From: an uncultured Clostridia bacterium
GTDB taxonomy: Bacteria; Bacillota; Clostridia; Oscillospirales; Ruminococcaceae
Direction of reading: 5' to 3'
NCBI GenBank assembly: GCA_947624155.1
Contig: CANQJB010000004.1
Coordinates: 5,041 to 69,040 of the forward strand
Length of the DNA stretch: 64,000 bases
Made by a program: the position numbers and the translations under genes. A model generated the notes under the pieces. That model had not been told where the DNA came from. It did no database searches and saw only the letters and a list, made by a program, of their open reading frames with translations. Positions 890-42,221 of this stretch are shown here, piece by piece (the first letter of the stretch is position 1; every line of letters begins with the position of its first letter).

Positions 890-3145
890 TCACTCCGTTT
901 CGCTTTGTTTTTCGGCGAGCATTCCGCCGTAGTCGCCCCAGAAGTAGTCGCTGATAAAGCCGGAATACTGCTCGGGGTCGACATAGATTTCAAGATCGCT
1001 GCGGGCGCCGTCGGTCGCAAGGTATTCCGACATACTGTTCGGCACCGAGATGTCCGCCGCGCCGACGCCGTCGGGCAGTATCAGCGAAGAGATCAGAGAG
1101 CCGCGCAAGGCCCCGCCGTCGAGCCTCGAAATGTTCCGCCCGAGATAAAGCGTTTCGATCTTAGTCCCGCTGAAAGCGTCGGCAGCGATCGTTCTGACCG
1201 GCTTTCCGCTGACCTCTTCGGGGATAGTCAGCTCCTTGAGCCCGCTTCCCTCGCCGTTGACCCCGACGACTGTCCAGCTTCCGTCGGCGGCCTCAGAGAG
1301 TTCGAGATAGAGGTTGTCGGTGGTGATGATCTCGGCGTAAGCGCTTAGCGCGCCGCTCTGAATAAAGCTTTGGTAGTCCCGCCAGTCGACCGAAAGGCTG
1401 ACCGAACCGCCGAGGTCTTCGGGGCTCGCAGGCAGGCTAAGCTCCTCGGGCTTGATTCCCGCGGGGACGGTTATTTCAAGCCCCGCCGCACCGCTGAAGG
1501 CGTATTCCCCGATTTTTACGACATTTTCGCCGAGGGTCAGTTTTTCGAGAAGCTCCGCGCCGTCAAAGGCCCAAGGCGCGATCTCGGTGACGGGAACGTC
1601 CTGCCAAAGGCCGGGGATTGTCAGCTCTGAGCGGATTTTTCCGCTGTCGGTGACGCTGACTAAAATCACGTATGAGCCGTCCGGCGAGAGTTCAAATTCA
1701 AAGCTTTCGTCTTTAGCGAGAAGCCCGCGGCAGTTCTCGAAAGCCGCGGAGGCGGAATACTGCTCATAAGCCTCCGGCGGGACATAGATTTTAAAATCGG
1801 GCGCGCAGCCGCTGCCGAGACCGCTTTTCGGCAGATTAAGCGAGTCGGCGCTCAGCCCTTCGGGTAGAATTATCCCCCGCAGGTTTTTGGCGTTTTCGAT
1901 CGCGCCGATCTTGATGTCGGCGATACCTCTGCCGAGTGTGCAGATAACCGCGCTGTCGCAGCCGTCAAAAGCGCCGGGGAGAACAGTTGTGACCGCGAAG
2001 CCGTTGATCTCGTCGGGCATAACGAGATATTTTTTGCTTCTGCCCGCTTCGGTCAGCCCCGAGATCGCCCACTCGCGGTTTGAAAGCCGCCGAAGCTCAA
2101 AGTTCTCGCAGTCGGGGCGCTTTCCCGGCGGCGGAGGCAGCTCTCCGGGCGGCAGGGTGATGTCGTCGCGGCCGAGCTCGCGTTTGATGTCGTCGATCAG
2201 CTTTACTGTCCTGACGGTGACGCCGGAGTTGTTGAGATGAAACTCCGAGTCGAAGAAATATCCGCTGTCGAGGATATAGTCGAAGATGTTGCTGATAACC
2301 TTGCAGTCGAGCGAGAGGCAGAGGTTTTCGTAAAATTCGCGGATATCCTCGTCGGTGTTATATTCTCTGACCGCGTCGGCGTTCATCGGCGGAAAGCTGA
2401 AATAAACCTCCGCTCCGCGTGATCTTATTTCGGCGGTGTATTCGTTCACATATTCGATATATTCCTCGTAGTCGCCCTGAACCCCGTCGGAGAGGTCGGC
2501 TCTGAAATCCAGAATTATCGGGTTGCCGCTTCCGGTCAGCTCGTTATATGGCCGGTCAAAGACGTTGTCGCCGTATCCGTTGAAATTCTCCTTGCAATAT
2601 GCGCCGACATTTTCGGGCAGAGTTCCCGAGCTGAGATAACCGAGCTTCGAGCCCGCAAAGTCCCAGAGCGAGCCGATCAGGCGCTCATATTCCGAGCTGT
2701 CGATGTCTTTTATCATTCTTAAAGAGCCGTCGAGAGCCTGCGCGGCGGTCTCGGCGTTGAAATAGAGCGAGAGTGTCTGTGCGTTCATCTCCGGCGCGAG
2801 GATAACGATGTCTCCCTCGCCGACGCTGCTGCGCGAGAGGTCCATCATCAGCTTTGTGCCGAGATTGGCGTAGAGCCCGAAGTTGACGGCGTCATATCCG
2901 AGCTCATTGGCGATCATCTCGCTGTCGAGCCCGAAAGCAGCGGAGCTGCCCGCGACGACGACTATTTTCTTGCCCTCCGAGGAGTTCAGACGGTCATATT
3001 TTTCGGACAGCTCGCCGATAAAGGTGTCGCCATAGACCGAAGGCAGGGCGAGCGCGATTATCAAGATTGCGATAAACGGGATTGCGAAGACCGCGAGCAT
3101 CGGCCCGAAGACGGAGAGAAATCTCTTTGATTCGCTTTGCTTCAT
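890..3145 (-). CDS. membrane-anchored DltD/SGNH-like acyltransferase partner domain fused to C-terminal BspA-type leucine-rich-repeat modules
   Basis: 751 aa. N-terminal TM helix, then ..KKIVVVAGSSAAFGLDSEMI..NFGLYANLG..GDIVILAPE.. and ..FDSEFHLNNSGV.. (DltD-like signature). A PPPPG linker follows, then three repeats of the pattern ..L.IP......I...AF.G.. (BspA-like LRR). Adjacent to the MBOAT gene. Confidence 0.65.
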   Translation of the reverse strand: MKQSESKRFLSVFGPMLAVFAIPFIAILIIALALPSVYGDTFIGELSEKYDRLNSSEGKKIVVVAGSSAAFGLDSEMIANELGYDAVNFGLYANLGTKLMMDLSRSSVGEGDIVILAPEMNAQTLSLYFNAETAAQALDGSLRMIKDIDSSEYERLIGSLWDFAGSKLGYLSSGTLPENVGAYCKENFNGYGDNVFDRPYNELTGSGNPIILDFRADLSDGVQGDYEEYIEYVNEYTAEIRSRGAEVYFSFPPMNADAVREYNTDEDIREFYENLCLSLDCKVISNIFDYILDSGYFFDSEFHLNNSGVTVRTVKLIDDIKRELGRDDITLPPGELPPPPGKRPDCENFELRRLSNREWAISGLTEAGRSKKYLVMPDEINGFAVTTVLPGAFDGCDSAVICTLGRGIADIKIGAIENAKNLRGIILPEGLSADSLNLPKSGLGSGCAPDFKIYVPPEAYEQYSASAAFENCRGLLAKDESFEFELSPDGSYVILVSVTDSGKIRSELTIPGLWQDVPVTEIAPWAFDGAELLEKLTLGENVVKIGEYAFSGAAGLEITVPAGIKPEELSLPASPEDLGGSVSLSVDWRDYQSFIQSGALSAYAEIITTDNLYLELSEAADGSWTVVGVNGEGSGLKELTIPEEVSGKPVRTIAADAFSGTKIETLYLGRNISRLDGGALRGSLISSLILPDGVGAADISVPNSMSEYLATDGARSDLEIYVDPEQYSGFISDYFWGDYGGMLAEKQSETE

Positions 3146-37160: not shown

Positions 37161-37463
37161 TCATTGTTCTCTTATTGCCTTTAAAATCGCCTCGACAAGT
37201 CTGACCTGCTCGTCGGAGAGGTCTGAGACGTCGAGAGTTTTCCGCCGCTCGATTCCGAGAAGGCAGTCGGTGCTGACATGAAAAACCTCCGACAGCCTGA
37301 TAAGAACATTTGGCGAGGGCGAACGCTCCTGCTGCTCATAAAACGAGATCACCGACTTTGTGACCCCGACTCTTTCGCCGAGCTGCGCTTGGGTCAGACC
37401 TGCTTTCTTCCTTAATTCCTTTAATCTTCTGCCAAAATCCACAGTGTTCACACTCCGTTCCAC
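37161..37463 (-). CDS. XRE family helix-turn-helix transcriptional regulator
   Basis: 100 aa. ..FGRRLKELRKKAGLTQAQLGERVGVTKSVISFYEQQERSPSPNVLIRLSEVFHVSTDCLLG... Confidence 0.85.
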   Translation of the reverse strand: MERSVNTVDFGRRLKELRKKAGLTQAQLGERVGVTKSVISFYEQQERSPSPNVLIRLSEVFHVSTDCLLGIERRKTLDVSDLSDEQVRLVEAILKAIREQ

Positions 37464-37560
37464 ATATATTATTGAGTATACGCGAGCGAAGTCAGAATTT
37501 TGGTGGAATTGCAGACTAAAATAGTTGACTTTGTCAAATCAATGTGATATAATGTTTCCG

Positions 37561-37646
37561 AAAAGGATTTCGGTCCTTTTCCCACTCTCATTTTCCCCCT
37601 CTGAACGGGAGCGAAGTAACCGCGCTCCCGTTCAGAACCCTTTTAT
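37561..37646 (+). ncRNA. candidate small RNA, unit 1 of a tandem pair (novel, unassigned)
   Basis: Promoter TTGACT (37526-31), 17 nt, TGaTATAAT (37546-54). The predicted transcript opens with the hairpin GAAAAGGA/TCCTTTTC (37561-82). Next is single-stranded CCACUCUCAUUUUCCCCCUC, then a perfect 14-bp hairpin (37601-14 / 37624-37), then ACCCUUUUAU. Confidence 0.45.
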
Positions 37647-37729
37647 ACGGCATATTTTGAGTCAAAATTCAGTGGAATTTTAATCTGAAATTATTGACTT
37701 TATTAAACCGGCGTGATATACTTAGTGAG

Positions 37730-37859
37730 GAAAGACAAAGTTCTTTCCTCACTCTCATTTCCTCTCTGAGCGGGAGTGCCTGAATCTGCGCTCCCGTTCA
37801 GGGGCCATATAAAAAAATAAAACTCCTGCAAATAAGCTTTGCAGGAGTTTGCTGTTTTA
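37730..37859 (+). ncRNA. candidate small RNA, unit 2 of a tandem pair (novel, unassigned)
   Basis: Promoter TTGACT (37695-700), 17 nt, TGaTATACT (37715-23). 5' hairpin within 37726-37753, then CACUCUCAUUUCCUCU. A 14-bp hairpin follows (37767-80 / 37789-802) with two G-U pairs that work only in the plus-strand RNA. The unit ends at the bidirectional terminator 37824-37859. Confidence 0.45.
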
Positions 37860-37862
37860 AAT

Positions 37863-38453
37863 TCAGATCGCTTTTGAGTGCGACCTCTTTGCGGTGTCAA
37901 TAATACCGACGATCGCGGTGCTGAGGCTGAGGTTGACGGCGAGCTCGACAAGCGAGTTGAGGCCGGTCATTCCGAAGATCAGGTAGAGGATAGTGTTGTT
38001 GAAACCGGCGTTCTGAGCCCATTCCTGAACCGTCGGATAGAAGAATATTCCGCAGCCGAGAAGGAAGATCACCTTGTTCACGGCTTGGCAGGCGATCGCC
38101 GCCAGAACCGTCCCGAGCCACAGATTTTTCTTTTCCAGAGCTTTATAGACAATCGCCGCGCAGAAGCCCGCCAGAGTTCCCTTCAGCATTACCGTGATAA
38201 CGGTTCCCGCCGGGTTGACCGCCATGAACAGCGCGGTATCGGTGAACATAACGACAACGCTGAATACAAAGCCGAGCCAGGTGCCGGCCTTCCAGCCGTA
38301 AAGAGCCGCGCCGACGACTATCGGAATGAAGACCAGCGCAATGCTGAACATTCCGAGCTTAATTACCGACGCCACCGACTGCAGGACGACGACTATCGCT
38401 GTCAAAAGTCCCATCATTGCGAGCATCCGCGTTTTTTCCCTTGAATTTGCCAT
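37863..38453 (-). CDS. ECF transporter S component, possibly pantothenate-specific (PanT-like) given linkage to coaX
   Basis: 196 aa and about 6 TM. ..TRMLAMMGLLTAIVVVLQ..IPIVVGAALYG.. is typical of ECF substrate-capture subunits. It lies immediately downstream of coaX. Confidence 0.6.
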   Translation of the reverse strand: MANSREKTRMLAMMGLLTAIVVVLQSVASVIKLGMFSIALVFIPIVVGAALYGWKAGTWLGFVFSVVVMFTDTALFMAVNPAGTVITVMLKGTLAGFCAAIVYKALEKKNLWLGTVLAAIACQAVNKVIFLLGCGIFFYPTVQEWAQNAGFNNTILYLIFGMTGLNSLVELAVNLSLSTAIVGIIDTAKRSHSKAI

Positions 38454-38480
38454 AAAAAATTTCCTCCTGTCAGGTGAGTG

Positions 38481-39251
38481 TTAAGCGTTGAGCTTATATA
38501 TATCGTATAGCCCGTCGAGCAGAAGCCTGTCGTCGTGGATTATACCCTTTGTTTTGCAGTGCGGAACTACCGTCCCCGCGAGGCCGCCTGTCGCGATCAC
38601 CTTCGCGTCGCCGAGGGTTTCGCGGAACAGCCCGATCATTCCGTCCATCATGCAGGCGGTGCCGAGAATCGAGCCGGAGCGCATACATTCGGCGGTGTCG
38701 AGGCTTATCGGCGAGATCTGCCGGCTTTCCGCCGCAATGTCCTGCAAAAGCGCCGCCGAGGAGCTGAGCGCCCGAAGTGAGATCATCACACCCGGGATTA
38801 TCGAGCCGCCGATGAAAACTCCGTCGCCGTCGATTGCTGAGACAGTCGTCGCGGTGCCGAAATCGAAGATTATTAGCGGCGCGCCGTATTTGTTTATCGC
38901 TCCGACCGCCCCGCAGACGAGATCCGCGCCGATCTGATCGGGGCTGAGCCCTTTGACCTTTAAGCCGCAGTTTATCCCTCTGCCGACAACCATCGCCTCC
39001 GAGCCGAAGAGAAGCCTTATCGCCGCCGAGAGCGAGGCGACGAGCGCCGGAACGACAGTCGAGACTATCGAGCCGGTAATATCTTCCCGCCGGACGCTGA
39101 ATAAATTCAGAATGTTCTGAATATCGGCGGCATACTGATCCGAGGTTTTGAGCGGGTCGGTCGCTATTCTCGCGGTGAATGCGAGACTGCCCGAGCCGTC
39201 AAAAGCGCCTAAGACAATGTTCGTGTTGCCCGCGTCGATTGCAAAAACCAT
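38481..39251 (-). CDS. coaX: type III pantothenate kinase
   Basis: 256 aa. MVFAIDAGNTNIVLG.., ..IIFDFGTATT.., ..GGLA.. motifs. Confidence 0.9.
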   Translation of the reverse strand: MVFAIDAGNTNIVLGAFDGSGSLAFTARIATDPLKTSDQYAADIQNILNLFSVRREDITGSIVSTVVPALVASLSAAIRLLFGSEAMVVGRGINCGLKVKGLSPDQIGADLVCGAVGAINKYGAPLIIFDFGTATTVSAIDGDGVFIGGSIIPGVMISLRALSSSAALLQDIAAESRQISPISLDTAECMRSGSILGTACMMDGMIGLFRETLGDAKVIATGGLAGTVVPHCKTKGIIHDDRLLLDGLYDIYKLNA

Positions 39252-39515
39252 TCTTTTCCGCCCCTTTGCCGTTTTGCTTTAGTGTATTATAATACTCCTT
39301 TTTCGGTTTCGCAAGGGGTCAGAACCAATTTCGTAGCCCTACACAATTTTTGCACAAACCGCCCCGATCTTTGTGTACTTTTTAGAGGGTAATATACATT
39401 TTCATGTATAAAATTTCTCCAAATATACATATATGTAGCCCGGGACCGATCTGCCCCGGGCCTACCCGTATAGTTTATTCATTCAGCTGTCGACTCTGAC
39501 AGCCGGCAGCTGCAA

Positions 39516-39935
39516 CTATCTGGAATTGCCGTTTGTCGAACCGTTCGCGGCGCCGTCGTTCTGGCCGTTCATTCCGTCGGGCTGCATACCCTCGCCGTTA
39601 GCTCCGGCGTCGGGGTCGGCTTCGGAACCGTCGGTCATGTCGTCCATTCCCTGCTCAAGGTCGTCGATGCCCTGTTCGAGATCGTTCATTCCCCGGTCTA
39701 TTCCGTCCTCGACGTCGTCGATTCCGTCTTCGAGGATACCGTTATCATCGGTGGTGAGGCTGACCTCGCCGTCGCGGTCGGCGTTGTAGCTTCCGTTGTC
39801 GTCGCCGAGTTCGGGCGCGGTGCTGCCGATTGTTGTTCCGTTGCCGGGCATACGGTAGGTTTCATCGTCGCCGCAGGCCGCAAAGAGACAGCAGCAGATT
39901 GCGAGAGCGGCAAATAAAGCAATAAATTTTTTCAT
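39516..39935 (-). CDS. highly acidic low-complexity lipoprotein
   Basis: I trimmed to the ATG at 39935 (AAAGGA upstream). MKKFIALFAALAICCCLFAACGDD has a lipobox. The mature part is D/E/G/N-rich with internal repeats (EDGIDDVEDGIDRGMNDLEQGIDDLEQGMDDM). Confidence 0.6.
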   Translation of the reverse strand: MKKFIALFAALAICCCLFAACGDDETYRMPGNGTTIGSTAPELGDDNGSYNADRDGEVSLTTDDNGILEDGIDDVEDGIDRGMNDLEQGIDDLEQGMDDMTDGSEADPDAGANGEGMQPDGMNGQNDGAANGSTNGNSR

Positions 39936-40095
39936 AGCAAATCCTTTCACTTTCCGTTTATCAAGCTCGAGCTTCTTGCTCGGGGTTATTATTGCCGTTC
40001 AGAGCGGGGATATACGCCGATTGGAAAATCTTTCGGATTTCTAAATGATGGAAAATAAAAGCGGGAGACCGCACCGTCTCCCGCTGAAATGTGTT

Positions 40096-41568
40096 TCAGG
40101 GCTTTTTTTCTTCGACCAGATTGTTCACCCAAATTCGCTTTTTGACGAGGATAAATCCGAGAATACACCGCAGGCTCGCCGACATCTGCTCGATCAGCAT
40201 TATCATTTCGACCGGAACCGACGGCGCGAAGTGGGTCAGTATAAAGACAATCGGGTAGTTGATCGCCCAGATAGCTCCGCTGTCGAAGATAAAGGTGATA
40301 AAGGTCTTTCCGCCCGAGCGCAGTGTGAAATAGCAGGCGTTGAGGAATGACTGGAGCGGCATACCCGCGGCGACCGCTAGAATAAGCTTCGCGGCGAGAG
40401 CCTTGATCTCCGGCTCGGTGTTGTAAAATTCCGGGAATACCGGCGCGACCGCGGCCATGACAAGGCCGGTTATTACGCTTGAGATAACCGAGACGACCAG
40501 CAGCTTTCGGTCGATGTCGACAGCCTCCTCGGTCTTCCCTGCGCCGAGATACTGACCGACGATTATCGCGATCGCGTTTCCGAGCGAGAGGAACACGACG
40601 TTGAACAGGTTCATGACCGTGGTGCTGATGTTGTTTGCGCTGACGACCTCGAGCCCGCGGACCGAGTAGCACTGAGCGACAGCGGCGATTCCGAAGCTCC
40701 AGAGAGTTTCGTTGAGAAGAAGAGGGGTGCCTTTTCTGATGATCTCGCCGACGACCTTCACTGGGATTCTGAAGCTTTTATAAAGCCCCTTTGCGAACGG
40801 ATTTCGGCCGGTGTGTGAATGCGTCCAGATCACGACTATAAGCATTTCGACATATCTCGAAACGACGGTCGCAATCGCCGCGCCTGCCGCGCCGAGTGCG
40901 GGAGCGCCGAGCTTTCCGAAGATAAGCACCCAGTTCAGCGCAAGGTTGACAAGCACCGCCGCTATTCCTGCGATCATCGGTACGACCGTCTCGCCGGTCT
41001 CGCGCAGAGTTCCGGCGTAGGACTGAGTTATCGCGAACGGCAGAAGGCCGATCATTATTATCGCGATATATTCCGAGCCGAAGCCGAGAGTTGCGGCAGG
41101 GTCTCCGACAGCGGCGCTGTCAGAGATATAGAGCGAGATAAGCGGCTCGCGGAAGAACCCGAAGACAAAAAGCCCGATCAGTGTTATCGCGGTGCAGACG
41201 ATCAGCTTGAAACGGGTCGTGTGGCGTACTCCTGCGTGGTCGCCCGAGCCGTGATACTGCGAGGTGAAGATTCCCGCGCCGGAGATCGCGCCGAATACGA
41301 GAATGTTGAAAACGAAGACTAGCTGATTCGCGATCGAAACGCCGGTCATCGGGTCGGTGCCGATTTTTCCGACCATGATGTTGTCAAGCATATTGACAAA
41401 GGTGGTGATCGCGTTCTGAACGATTATCGGCAGAGCGACGCCGGCGAGCATCTTATAAAACTGCCTGTCGCCCATATATTTTCGGACAAAGGCCGAGAAT
41501 GACACTTTTCTGACTTCCTTTCCTTGACATAACTTATTGATTATAGCCGATATCTCCGAAAAATGCAA
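40096..41568 (-). CDS. MATE family efflux transporter
   Basis: 12-TM protein with ..LALPIIVQN..-like start (..MLAGVALPIIVQNAITTFVNMLDNIMVG..). The start is uncertain: TTG at 41568 as in the ORF track, or ATG at 41475. Confidence 0.85.
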   Translation of the reverse strand: MHFSEISAIINKLCQGKEVRKVSFSAFVRKYMGDRQFYKMLAGVALPIIVQNAITTFVNMLDNIMVGKIGTDPMTGVSIANQLVFVFNILVFGAISGAGIFTSQYHGSGDHAGVRHTTRFKLIVCTAITLIGLFVFGFFREPLISLYISDSAAVGDPAATLGFGSEYIAIIMIGLLPFAITQSYAGTLRETGETVVPMIAGIAAVLVNLALNWVLIFGKLGAPALGAAGAAIATVVSRYVEMLIVVIWTHSHTGRNPFAKGLYKSFRIPVKVVGEIIRKGTPLLLNETLWSFGIAAVAQCYSVRGLEVVSANNISTTVMNLFNVVFLSLGNAIAIIVGQYLGAGKTEEAVDIDRKLLVVSVISSVITGLVMAAVAPVFPEFYNTEPEIKALAAKLILAVAAGMPLQSFLNACYFTLRSGGKTFITFIFDSGAIWAINYPIVFILTHFAPSVPVEMIMLIEQMSASLRCILGFILVKKRIWVNNLVEEKKP

Positions 41569-41741: not shown

Positions 41742-42221
41742 ATGAAAAAAAACACTAAAAGAAGCCAGAGCATCAGCTGCCTCGTCCATTCGTTCCTTCA
41801 TGTGAACAGGCTCCGCAGAGCCATGTCCGAGGAGCAGATCAGCAAGCTCGGAGTACACAGCAGCCAGCACCATATGCTCGCGATCATCGCCGGCAGCAAG
41901 AATATCTGCCAAAAGGAAATCGCCCAGAAGCTCGAGATCTCCTCGGCCGCCGTCGCCGTTACTCTCAACAAGCTCGAAGCCTCCGGCCTTATCGAGCGCA
42001 ACCAGTCCTTTGACGATGCGAGAATGAACCACATCACCATCACCGACAAGGGCAAGGACATTCTCAAGTCCTCAAAGTCGATGTTTGACGCGATGGATGA
42101 GAAATGCTTCGAGGGAATCACCGACGAAGAAATCGCCCTGATGACCGGCCTTCTCGACAAGATGACAGAAAACCTCAGAGCACTCCGCCAGGAGACAAGC
42201 GGCCGCCCCTCCAAGGATTAA
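41742..42221 (+). CDS. MarR family transcriptional regulator
   Basis: 159 aa. ..HHMLAIIAGSKNICQKEIAQKLEISSAAVAVTLNKLEASGLIER.. is a winged HTH. Confidence 0.85.
   Translation: MKKNTKRSQSISCLVHSFLHVNRLRRAMSEEQISKLGVHSSQHHMLAIIAGSKNICQKEIAQKLEISSAAVAVTLNKLEASGLIERNQSFDDARMNHITITDKGKDILKSSKSMFDAMDEKCFEGITDEEIALMTGLLDKMTENLRALRQETSGRPSKD

Follow-up and report, generated by a model that had tools for sequence, protein, structure and literature searches.

In a 64,000-nucleotide stretch of contig CANQJB010000004.1 from an uncultured Clostridia bacterium (hereafter the window), two head-to-tail units of ~168 nt each (37495-37832) lie between a gene for an XRE-family regulator and a convergent gene for an ECF transporter S-component. 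The initial annotation, made from the DNA alone, had described a tandemly duplicated unit of about 169 nt at this site, and pairwise alignment bore this out, giving 81% column identity over ~170 nt. The units were read as two tandem, paralogous plus-strand genes for trans-acting small RNAs (sRNAs) of ~90 nt and ~130 nt, a reading to which sequence and comparison lend a probability of about 0.7. The coordinates of the features are collected in Table 1.

Table 1. Features of the XRE-sRNA locus (window coordinates)
Feature	Position	Strand	Details
XRE-family (CapH/ImmR/SinR-like) regulator gene	37161..37442	-	93 aa, GTG start; Pfam HTH_3, E = 3e-17
XRE translation-initiation region	37443..37468	-	mRNA 5'-GUGGAACGGAGUGUGAACACU-GUG; candidate pairing site of the sRNA tract
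Region of the XRE gene's own promoter	37468..37495	-	Weak scan match CTGACT-16-AATAAT
AGTATAC (TATACT on the minus strand)	37475-37481		Family-conserved element
Box 1, GGTGGAAT, candidate XRE operator	37502..37509 (GTGGAAT 37503-37509)		22 nt upstream of the promoter 1 -35
Promoter 1	37525..37553	+	TTGACT, 17-nt spacer, TG-extended TATAAT; 11/12 consensus matches
sRNA unit 1, predicted ends	37560..37647	+	5' hairpin 37560-37581; weak U-tract 37642-37647
Unit 1 unpaired tract, CACUCUCAUUUUCC	37583-37596	+	Predicted fold
Unit 1 long hairpin	37600-37613 / 37623-37636	+	14 bp; arms 100% complementary
Box 2, GTGGAAT	37672..37678		22 nt upstream of the promoter 2 -35; read from the sequence
Promoter 2	37694..37722	+	TTGACT, 17-nt spacer, TG-extended TATACT; 10/12 consensus matches
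sRNA unit 2, predicted ends	37728..37858	+	5' hairpin within 37724-37753
Unit 2 unpaired tract, CACUCUCAUUUCC	37750-37762	+	Exact tract match located
Unit 2 long hairpin	37763-37804	+	14-17 bp; G-U pairs G37770-U37797, U37777-G37790
Bidirectional terminator	37820-37850, U-tail to 37858	both	Called on both strands by scan; common to unit 2 and the convergent ECF S-component gene
ECF transporter S-component gene, then type III pantothenate kinase gene	37863..38453	-	Convergent neighbour; Pfam ECF_trnsprt, Pan_kinase

Each unit carries the -35 box, 17-nt spacer and extended -10 box that had been proposed for it; both -35 boxes are present, although their starts had been placed 1 nt too high (at 37526 and 37695). 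A promoter scan of the region detected exactly two strong plus-strand promoters, compared with 1.4 ± 1.1 promoter-like sites per shuffle. In both units the promoter is independent of the neighbouring genes, as is characteristic of trans-acting sRNA genes. The initial annotation was right that the units do not represent leaders, since every gene from 37863 to 41568 lies on the minus strand: the next plus-strand gene starts at 41742, and among the open reading frames (ORFs) of the window there is no plus-strand ORF of at least 60 aa before that position that could serve as a downstream gene. A downstream same-strand gene in the same transcription unit, by which a leader, riboswitch or attenuator is recognized, is absent in the window. 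In related loci (see below), a terminator comes after the RNA, and the genes that lie beyond are either unrelated or on the other strand.

Both predicted transcripts start right at a 5' hairpin, which is followed by an unpaired CU-rich tract and a long hairpin, the same arrangement as first proposed. The z-scores of these folds ranged from -6 to -9.8 for the two units, and none of 200 shuffles was as stable (-36.5 kcal/mol and z = -7.0 for unit 1, with the tract unpaired; z = -9.4 to -9.8 for unit 2). The 14-bp hairpin reported previously was recovered in unit 1 with fully complementary arms. Seven predicted RNAs from the window and its relatives were folded; each had a 5' and a 3' hairpin (z -3.1 to -9.4), and the tract was unpaired in the minimum-free-energy structure of six, the exception being locus L177, in which its CUCU end is paired (related loci are designated by an L and a number). 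In the relatives, a canonical terminator, i.e. a hairpin plus a U-tail, comes directly after the tract. For unit 2 of the window the likely end is the bidirectional terminator shared with the ECF S-component gene (37820-37858).

The XRE-proximal spacer (37480-37492) and the long hairpin of unit 1, in its 5' arm (37605-37617), have a 13-nt direct repeat in common (ACGCGAGCGAAGT / ACGGGAGCGAAGT). It may be what is left of another unit, now partly deleted, and it hints at duplications of the cassette described below. The ECF S-component gene is not part of the RNA system. Farther along, between coaX and a MATE transporter gene, the window encodes a 144-aa predicted lipoprotein very rich in Asp, Gly and Asn and with no Pfam match (39516-39950, minus strand).

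Conservation and strand of the predicted RNA

For comparison with relatives, 80 genomic loci were fetched, together with contigs for the closest XRE homologues. Ten copies of the RNA were recognized in eight lineages: units 1 and 2 of the window, L002, L001, L168/169, L170-176, L177, L178, and copies 1 and 2 of L081. All have a common order of 5' hairpin, unpaired CACUCUCAUUUC and 3' hairpin, and nine of the ten are preceded by a near-consensus promoter, none being identified for L081 copy 2. When the ten copies were aligned, CTCTCATTT was invariant in all of them and CA...C nearly so; the flanks do not align, and the hairpin sequences, unlike the tract, are unrelated between lineages. A conserved single-stranded seed held between sequence-variable structures is a hallmark of this class of sRNA. 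The CU-rich tract complementary to Shine-Dalgarno sequences that had been called conserved was upheld in part: CACUCUCAUUUC(C) is conserved, but the CCUC(U)CU tail is organism-specific. The comparison with relatives had been set beforehand as one that might overturn the proposal, and it found the tract and the hairpin layout conserved.

The stems also show signs of maintenance. L001 and L170, an alignable pair, differ by compensatory changes of both partners in five base pairs, of which three follow one another in the terminator stem. Among strains of the window organism (L161-L167), the region has six substitutions, none of which falls in the tract or the long-hairpin stems; the only one in any stem (strain L166) replaces U-G by C-G as the closing pair of the 5' hairpin of unit 1. 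The layout seen in ten copies and eight lineages and the compensatory stem changes in one relative pair favour the plus-strand sRNA genes that were the central proposal of the initial annotation.

Each of the eight lineages has an orthologous XRE gene (93-99 aa) with a copy of the RNA at most 250 nt upstream of it, and in all the closest lineages (XRE 62-74% identical) the RNA adjoins that gene. The surroundings of the pair vary: its neighbours are bipA and ECF-S/coaX in the window, the same genes in L168 and L170 with the XRE-sRNA module inverted, tspO and rpmG-secE-nusG in L248, and DUF6465 in L250. As judged from this comparison, the XRE-RNA module moves as a unit between chromosomal neighbourhoods. 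In L081 the RNA units are on the same strand as the XRE gene, i.e. inverted relative to it. Copy 1 lies 1 kb away and has its own TTGACA-17-TGATATAAT promoter, and both copies keep the tract followed by the terminator despite the inversion; this retained polarity points to a constraint at the RNA level. Two further observations were made at this locus. The two sRNA copies (1255-1385 and 2300-2400) flank a gene of 274 aa, and copy 2 converges on the XRE-divergent promoter and shares a bidirectional terminator with it, so that this promoter would make only a ~45-nt transcript antisense to the terminator.

The strand was fixed as plus because of the L081 polarity and the G-U evidence together. 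In unit 2, the G-U pairs become A-C mismatches on the minus strand, and the predicted energy changes from -48.4 to -40.8 kcal/mol; the wobble pairs that had been cited in favour of the plus strand were thus confirmed, their positions alone having been 1 nt off. The promoter scan found no good minus-strand promoter in the region. No short ORF is conserved between the units or between species on either strand, which extends to other species what had been stated for the units. The conserved short ORF with a ribosome-binding site that marks a small-protein gene or a type I toxin-antitoxin system is missing from both strands.

No known element was recognized. When the window was searched against Rfam 15 (cmscan at E ≤ 10), the best matches overlapping the units had E ≥ 0.26, far below the gathering scores; the two best (PyrG_leader and rnk_pseudo) rest on the terminator hairpin and the others are scattered and at chance level. 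Seven related loci gave nothing against Rfam at E ≤ 0.1. The gathering threshold was not reached for any curated Rfam family (among them csRNA, LhrC, RsaE, C4 and phage sRNAs), which agrees with the earlier failure to recognize the RNA. The segment had no match in phage and plasmid collections (blastn) either, so the check for a phage remnant or annotated RNA family, also foreseen at the outset, brought up nothing. Full-text literature searches found no published description of such an RNA.

Searches for more distant copies added little. A fuzzy tract search found no further copies in L003-L080. An exact pattern combining the tract with the window-specific hairpin arm had no match in species-representative genomes, because the hairpin is lineage-specific and the pattern too narrow, and the matches listed in a metagenome scan with the XRE protein were mostly distant XRE proteins, only L081 being useful. 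A 15-mer of the tract had 66 matches in viral contigs, none with the promoter-terminator layout, and these were read as chance. What looked like the start of a tRNA behind the sRNA of L168, where the contig ends, was not confirmed by ARAGORN. In L170 (~1275-1400, minus strand) and L001 (~2765-2890, minus strand), an extra structured 5' domain of ~115 nt (GAAGGGCAGAUUGG...GGCAUUUGCCCUUG...) stands before the tract; it has no Rfam match, and its helices are partly backed by compensatory changes.

The XRE gene, its cassette and the candidate operator

The XRE regulator assigned to the neighbouring gene was confirmed by its Pfam match (Table 1); a longer 100-aa ORF form of the gene starts at 37463. 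An identical 93-aa protein (P0001) exists, within a large family at 60-74% identity, and hundreds of homologues at 55-74% identity occur in uncultured Oscillospiraceae, Ruminococcus and other Clostridia. Its matches in the PDB are ImmR (E = 2.5e-12) and also P22 C2 and SinR, and the PADLOC capH model matches it over its full length (E = 5e-13; residues 1-91 vs profile positions 5-99 of 103). It has the make-up of CapH/ImmR, that of a helix-turn-helix (HTH) repressor of ~100 aa with a C-terminal oligomerisation segment. The search for a partner metallopeptidase of the CapP/ImmA type was negative: eight proteins encoded nearby were scanned without a peptidase domain coming up, and the related loci had none either.

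Most of the 80 related loci have a divergent promoter of near-consensus sequence, whose distance to the XRE start hardly varies from ~74 nt. In L003-L080, where the XRE gene is on the plus strand (at ~3001) and its cargo lies directly upstream on the minus strand, the genes served include zinc-ribbon membrane proteins, lipoproteins, TetR and LytTR regulators, an EcoRI-type methylase, TIR_2 and YpsA/SLOG proteins and a serine recombinase; SipW-like signal peptidases were assigned by eye from their N-terminal sequence, without a Pfam match. From this assortment, the XRE gene and its divergent promoter would seem to be a cassette of general use for controlling surface, defence or mobile genes. 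In L019, L020 and L013/L179, the cargo genes have leaders of 55-90 nt with GC-rich hairpins, unrelated in sequence to the sRNA; these could be attenuators, at least in L019, where the hairpin is followed by a U-run. The protein P0002 of L179/L180 (173 aa), a close homologue, consists of two XRE HTH domains fused in tandem, and the cargo there is a membrane-protein gene.

The two GTGGAAT boxes (Table 1) are identical although the surrounding promoter DNA has diverged. In a stack of 57 loci anchored on the -35 box, the box reads GGTGGAAT (GGTGGAA) in one subfamily and GGTTGA(T/A) in another, at a fixed distance. It covaries with the first XRE codons, GTGGATTTTGG occurring with GTGGAATTTT and ATGGTTGAC with ATGGTTGAT. 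Nearer the gene, AGTATAC/AGTTTAC is kept at its position across the 57 family loci and reads, on the other strand, as the XRE gene's own -10 box. These patterns suggest that XRE regulates its own gene together with the two sRNA promoters, acting either as a repressor or as an activator. In the window, GTGGAT (37437-37442) and GTGGAAT (within 37502-37509) form an inverted repeat ~60 bp apart that brackets the XRE promoter, an arrangement that suggests two operators or looping. The operator had previously been sought in a palindrome at the unit 1 -35 box; this sequence (TTGACTTTGTCAA, 37525-37537) is absent from unit 2 (TTGACTTTATTAA) and from the relatives, and was discarded.

Candidate targets and competing explanations

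A mechanism can be proposed in which each sRNA gene would be transcribed from its own near-consensus housekeeping-sigma promoter. The XRE protein would bind the GTGGAAT box upstream of both -35 boxes and the related sequence at the start of its own gene, and would thus control the two sRNA promoters together with itself. The exposed tract 5'-CACUCUCAUUUC(C)-3' would pair with purine-rich ribosome-binding regions of mRNAs (complement form GGAAAUGAGAGUG) and block translation initiation. One target would be the Shine-Dalgarno region of the XRE mRNA, which would close an RNA/protein feedback loop.

The XRE initiation region (5'-GGAACGGAGUGUGA) is identical to the tract complement at 11 of 14 positions, and that of L002 at 12 of 14. 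With the conserved core tract, it came out on top of all the initiation regions compared, of which there were 52 in the window, 21 in L248 and 10 in L250. Whichever lineage was taken, the predicted sRNA-XRE duplex fell within the top 0.04-5% of background windows, and in L177 the pairing extends over 14 contiguous bp across the Shine-Dalgarno region. Within the 64 kb of the window, no site had ≤2 mismatches to the tract complement except the sRNA genes themselves, and the best predicted duplexes elsewhere were not at gene starts. That the sRNA targets the initiation region of its own regulator, the one lead to recur in these comparisons, is a serious candidate, with the odds on the side against it. 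The XRE match appeared to be enriched in sRNA-bearing loci (Mann-Whitney p = 0.0035), an effect confounded by phylogeny that was set aside. The second-best core match among the 21 of L248 was the start of rpmG (ribosomal protein L33, MRVN..., mRNA GAAAAUGAGGGUAAAC; L248 10580-10610 = L002 3580-3610), with 300 nt in L248 separating it from the XRE gene upstream. An MRV start is common among Firmicute L33 proteins and matches the tract complement (AUGAGAGUG).

Several results weigh against the proposed sRNA genes and their regulation. Neither long hairpin of the window is directly followed by a U-run, so unit 1 is without a canonical terminator; it has only UUUUAU, 5 nt past the hairpin, which was not called by the terminator scan, and its transcription may read through into unit 2. 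Copy 1 of L081 has no GTGGAAT box. As for the target, the XRE initiation region ranked only 21st and 8th of 52 when the organism-specific extended tracts were used, and related loci devoid of the sRNA have the same XRE leader sequence. Cognate sRNA-XRE pairs were no better matched than non-cognate ones (permutation p = 0.17), so the complementarity could reflect shared ancestry through cassette duplication or the generic purine richness of ribosome-binding sites. The target screening spanned ~95 kb of sRNA-bearing genomes.

Some of these points are also those that favour other explanations. The RNA might titrate a protein, e.g. one that binds pyrimidine tracts or single-stranded RNA, rather than pair with an mRNA, the tandem copies raising the dose; such a role would account for an invariant part that is a short exposed motif between two hairpins, for the want of a convincing non-self target in the 64 kb screened, and for an XRE-leader pairing without cognate covariation. 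It is nevertheless improbable, since each RNA has one motif and protein sponges usually have several, the XRE initiation region came first in three genomes, and the motif joins CAU to a CU-rich sequence, typical of RNAs antisense to initiation sites, for which the csRNAs offer a precedent (PMC3091779). About equally improbable is that the units are functionless leftovers, perhaps transcribed, of a cassette promoter and 5' leader that were duplicated after loss of the protein cargo. The same promoter drives unrelated protein genes in 37 other loci, so cargo turnover must be frequent; moreover, the 13-nt repeat suggests repeated local duplication, and the window hairpins lack U-tails. Leftovers would not, however, be expected to keep a tract invariant in eight lineages whose flanks are unalignable, to maintain hairpins through compensatory changes, or to remain with the XRE gene across changes of context and an inversion, and the six strain substitutions spare the tract and the long-hairpin stems, the sole stem change improving a pair.

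Two readings that dispense with a plus-strand RNA fare worse. The conserved 12-13-mer could be a DNA-level site, either protein-binding or an att-like recombination site, with incidental hairpins. In L081 two ACTCTCATTTCCAAAA copies directly flank a 1-kb single-gene segment, the XRE protein resembles repressors of mobile elements, and one family member (L181) adjoins a serine recombinase. Yet every copy is preceded by a 5' hairpin and followed, on the same strand, by another hairpin or a terminator, nine of the ten are downstream of a promoter even when inverted, no integrase is present in the sRNA-bearing loci, and the motif differs from the conserved GTGGAA box; a DNA site is accordingly very unlikely. 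Slighter still are the chances of a minus-strand product, which would be either an XRE 5' leader or a short peptide that starts with MRV(K/G/R) and is read antisense to the tract (GGAAAUGAGAGUG). Opposite the tract there is in every copy an ATG preceded by GGA/GGGGG, and the region is upstream of the XRE gene on that strand. The peptides, however, would be of 15-55 aa with only 3-5 N-terminal residues in common, and the Shine-Dalgarno-like sequence is merely 1-3 nt from the ATG. In addition, a bidirectional terminator is found just upstream on the minus strand in the relatives, the promoter element conserved in the XRE family is downstream of the units, and both the loss of the G-U pairs in minus-strand folds and the lack of a good minus-strand promoter speak for the other strand.

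The reading as trans-acting sRNA genes can be taken one step further, as a speculation that is more probably wrong than right. XRE and the sRNA might together be a self-contained, mobile RNA/protein switch, in which the tract was born as an antisense copy of the XRE ribosome-binding site through cassette duplication, the sRNA came to repress XRE translation and XRE to control the sRNA promoters by way of the GTGGAAT box, and the pair was carried into new contexts and tandemly duplicated. Were this so, the circuit would be a mixed feedback loop, and a toggle if XRE is a repressor.

Comparison with known systems and implications

The closest parallels in the literature share parts of this arrangement. 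The csRNAs of Streptococcus, which depend on CiaR, are similar paralogues, each with a very strong regulator-dependent promoter, and consist of two stem-loops around an unpaired conserved region with CAU (anti-AUG) and a pyrimidine-rich sequence complementary to initiation regions (PMC3091779). A conserved single-stranded CAU/CU-rich tract is held between two stem-loops here too. There is, however, no sequence or covariance-model similarity, the putative regulator is the adjacent XRE protein rather than CiaRH, the hosts are uncultured Clostridia, and the anti-Shine-Dalgarno part is not conserved. The promoters of csRNA genes carry a TTTAAG-N5-TTTAAG repeat, which the promoters described here lack.

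AbcR1 and AbcR2 of the Rhizobiales are two tandem homologous sRNAs with their own promoters and terminators, adjoining the gene of their controlling factor VtlR/LsrB (PMC7486931), and the window likewise has a tandem homologous pair directly beside a regulator gene. The AbcR system differs in belonging to Alphaproteobacteria, in having a LysR-type activator and in the position of the sRNA genes, which follow the regulator gene downstream instead of diverging from it; there is no sequence relationship, and, unlike for the present locus, there is no suggestion that AbcR targets the mRNA of its own regulator. LhrC1-5 of Listeria monocytogenes are multicopy Firmicute sRNAs that block translation through pairing of their exposed CU-rich motifs with purine-rich Shine-Dalgarno regions (PMC4132741). 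The units resemble these, and RsaE/RoxS-type C-rich sRNAs as well, in being multicopy and CU-rich. LhrC has redundant UCCC motifs in its loops and linker, in contrast to the single linear CACUCUCAUUUC tract, and is under LisRK rather than XRE, and no Rfam match to the LhrC or RsaE models was obtained here. Finally, the locus is like CapH/ImmR and phage CI-type cassettes in that an XRE gene stands back-to-back with a strong promoter and variable cargo, and unlike CapH/ImmR cassettes in that there is no adjacent gene for a CapP/ImmA-type protease and the cargo is a non-coding RNA.

The tandem units are a candidate sRNA family, undescribed but of a familiar kind, and a member of none of the csRNA, LhrC or AbcR families, because they have no covariance-model match to them, a different regulator and different hosts. 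What is less usual is the fixed partnership with a CapH/ImmR-like cassette that bears protein cargo elsewhere, and the possible targeting of the repressor's own ribosome-binding site. Herbivore and human guts are dominated by uncultured Oscillospirales-type Clostridia, whose regulatory sRNAs have hardly been charted, and the fixed partnership with a CapH/ImmR-like repressor supplies a ready-made hypothesis for how this sRNA is regulated. The reuse of one cassette for surface, defence-type and recombinase genes and for a non-coding RNA offers a way to study the capture of new outputs by regulatory modules. Should the sRNA indeed target the ribosome-binding site of its own regulator, the pair would be a compact natural RNA/protein feedback switch.

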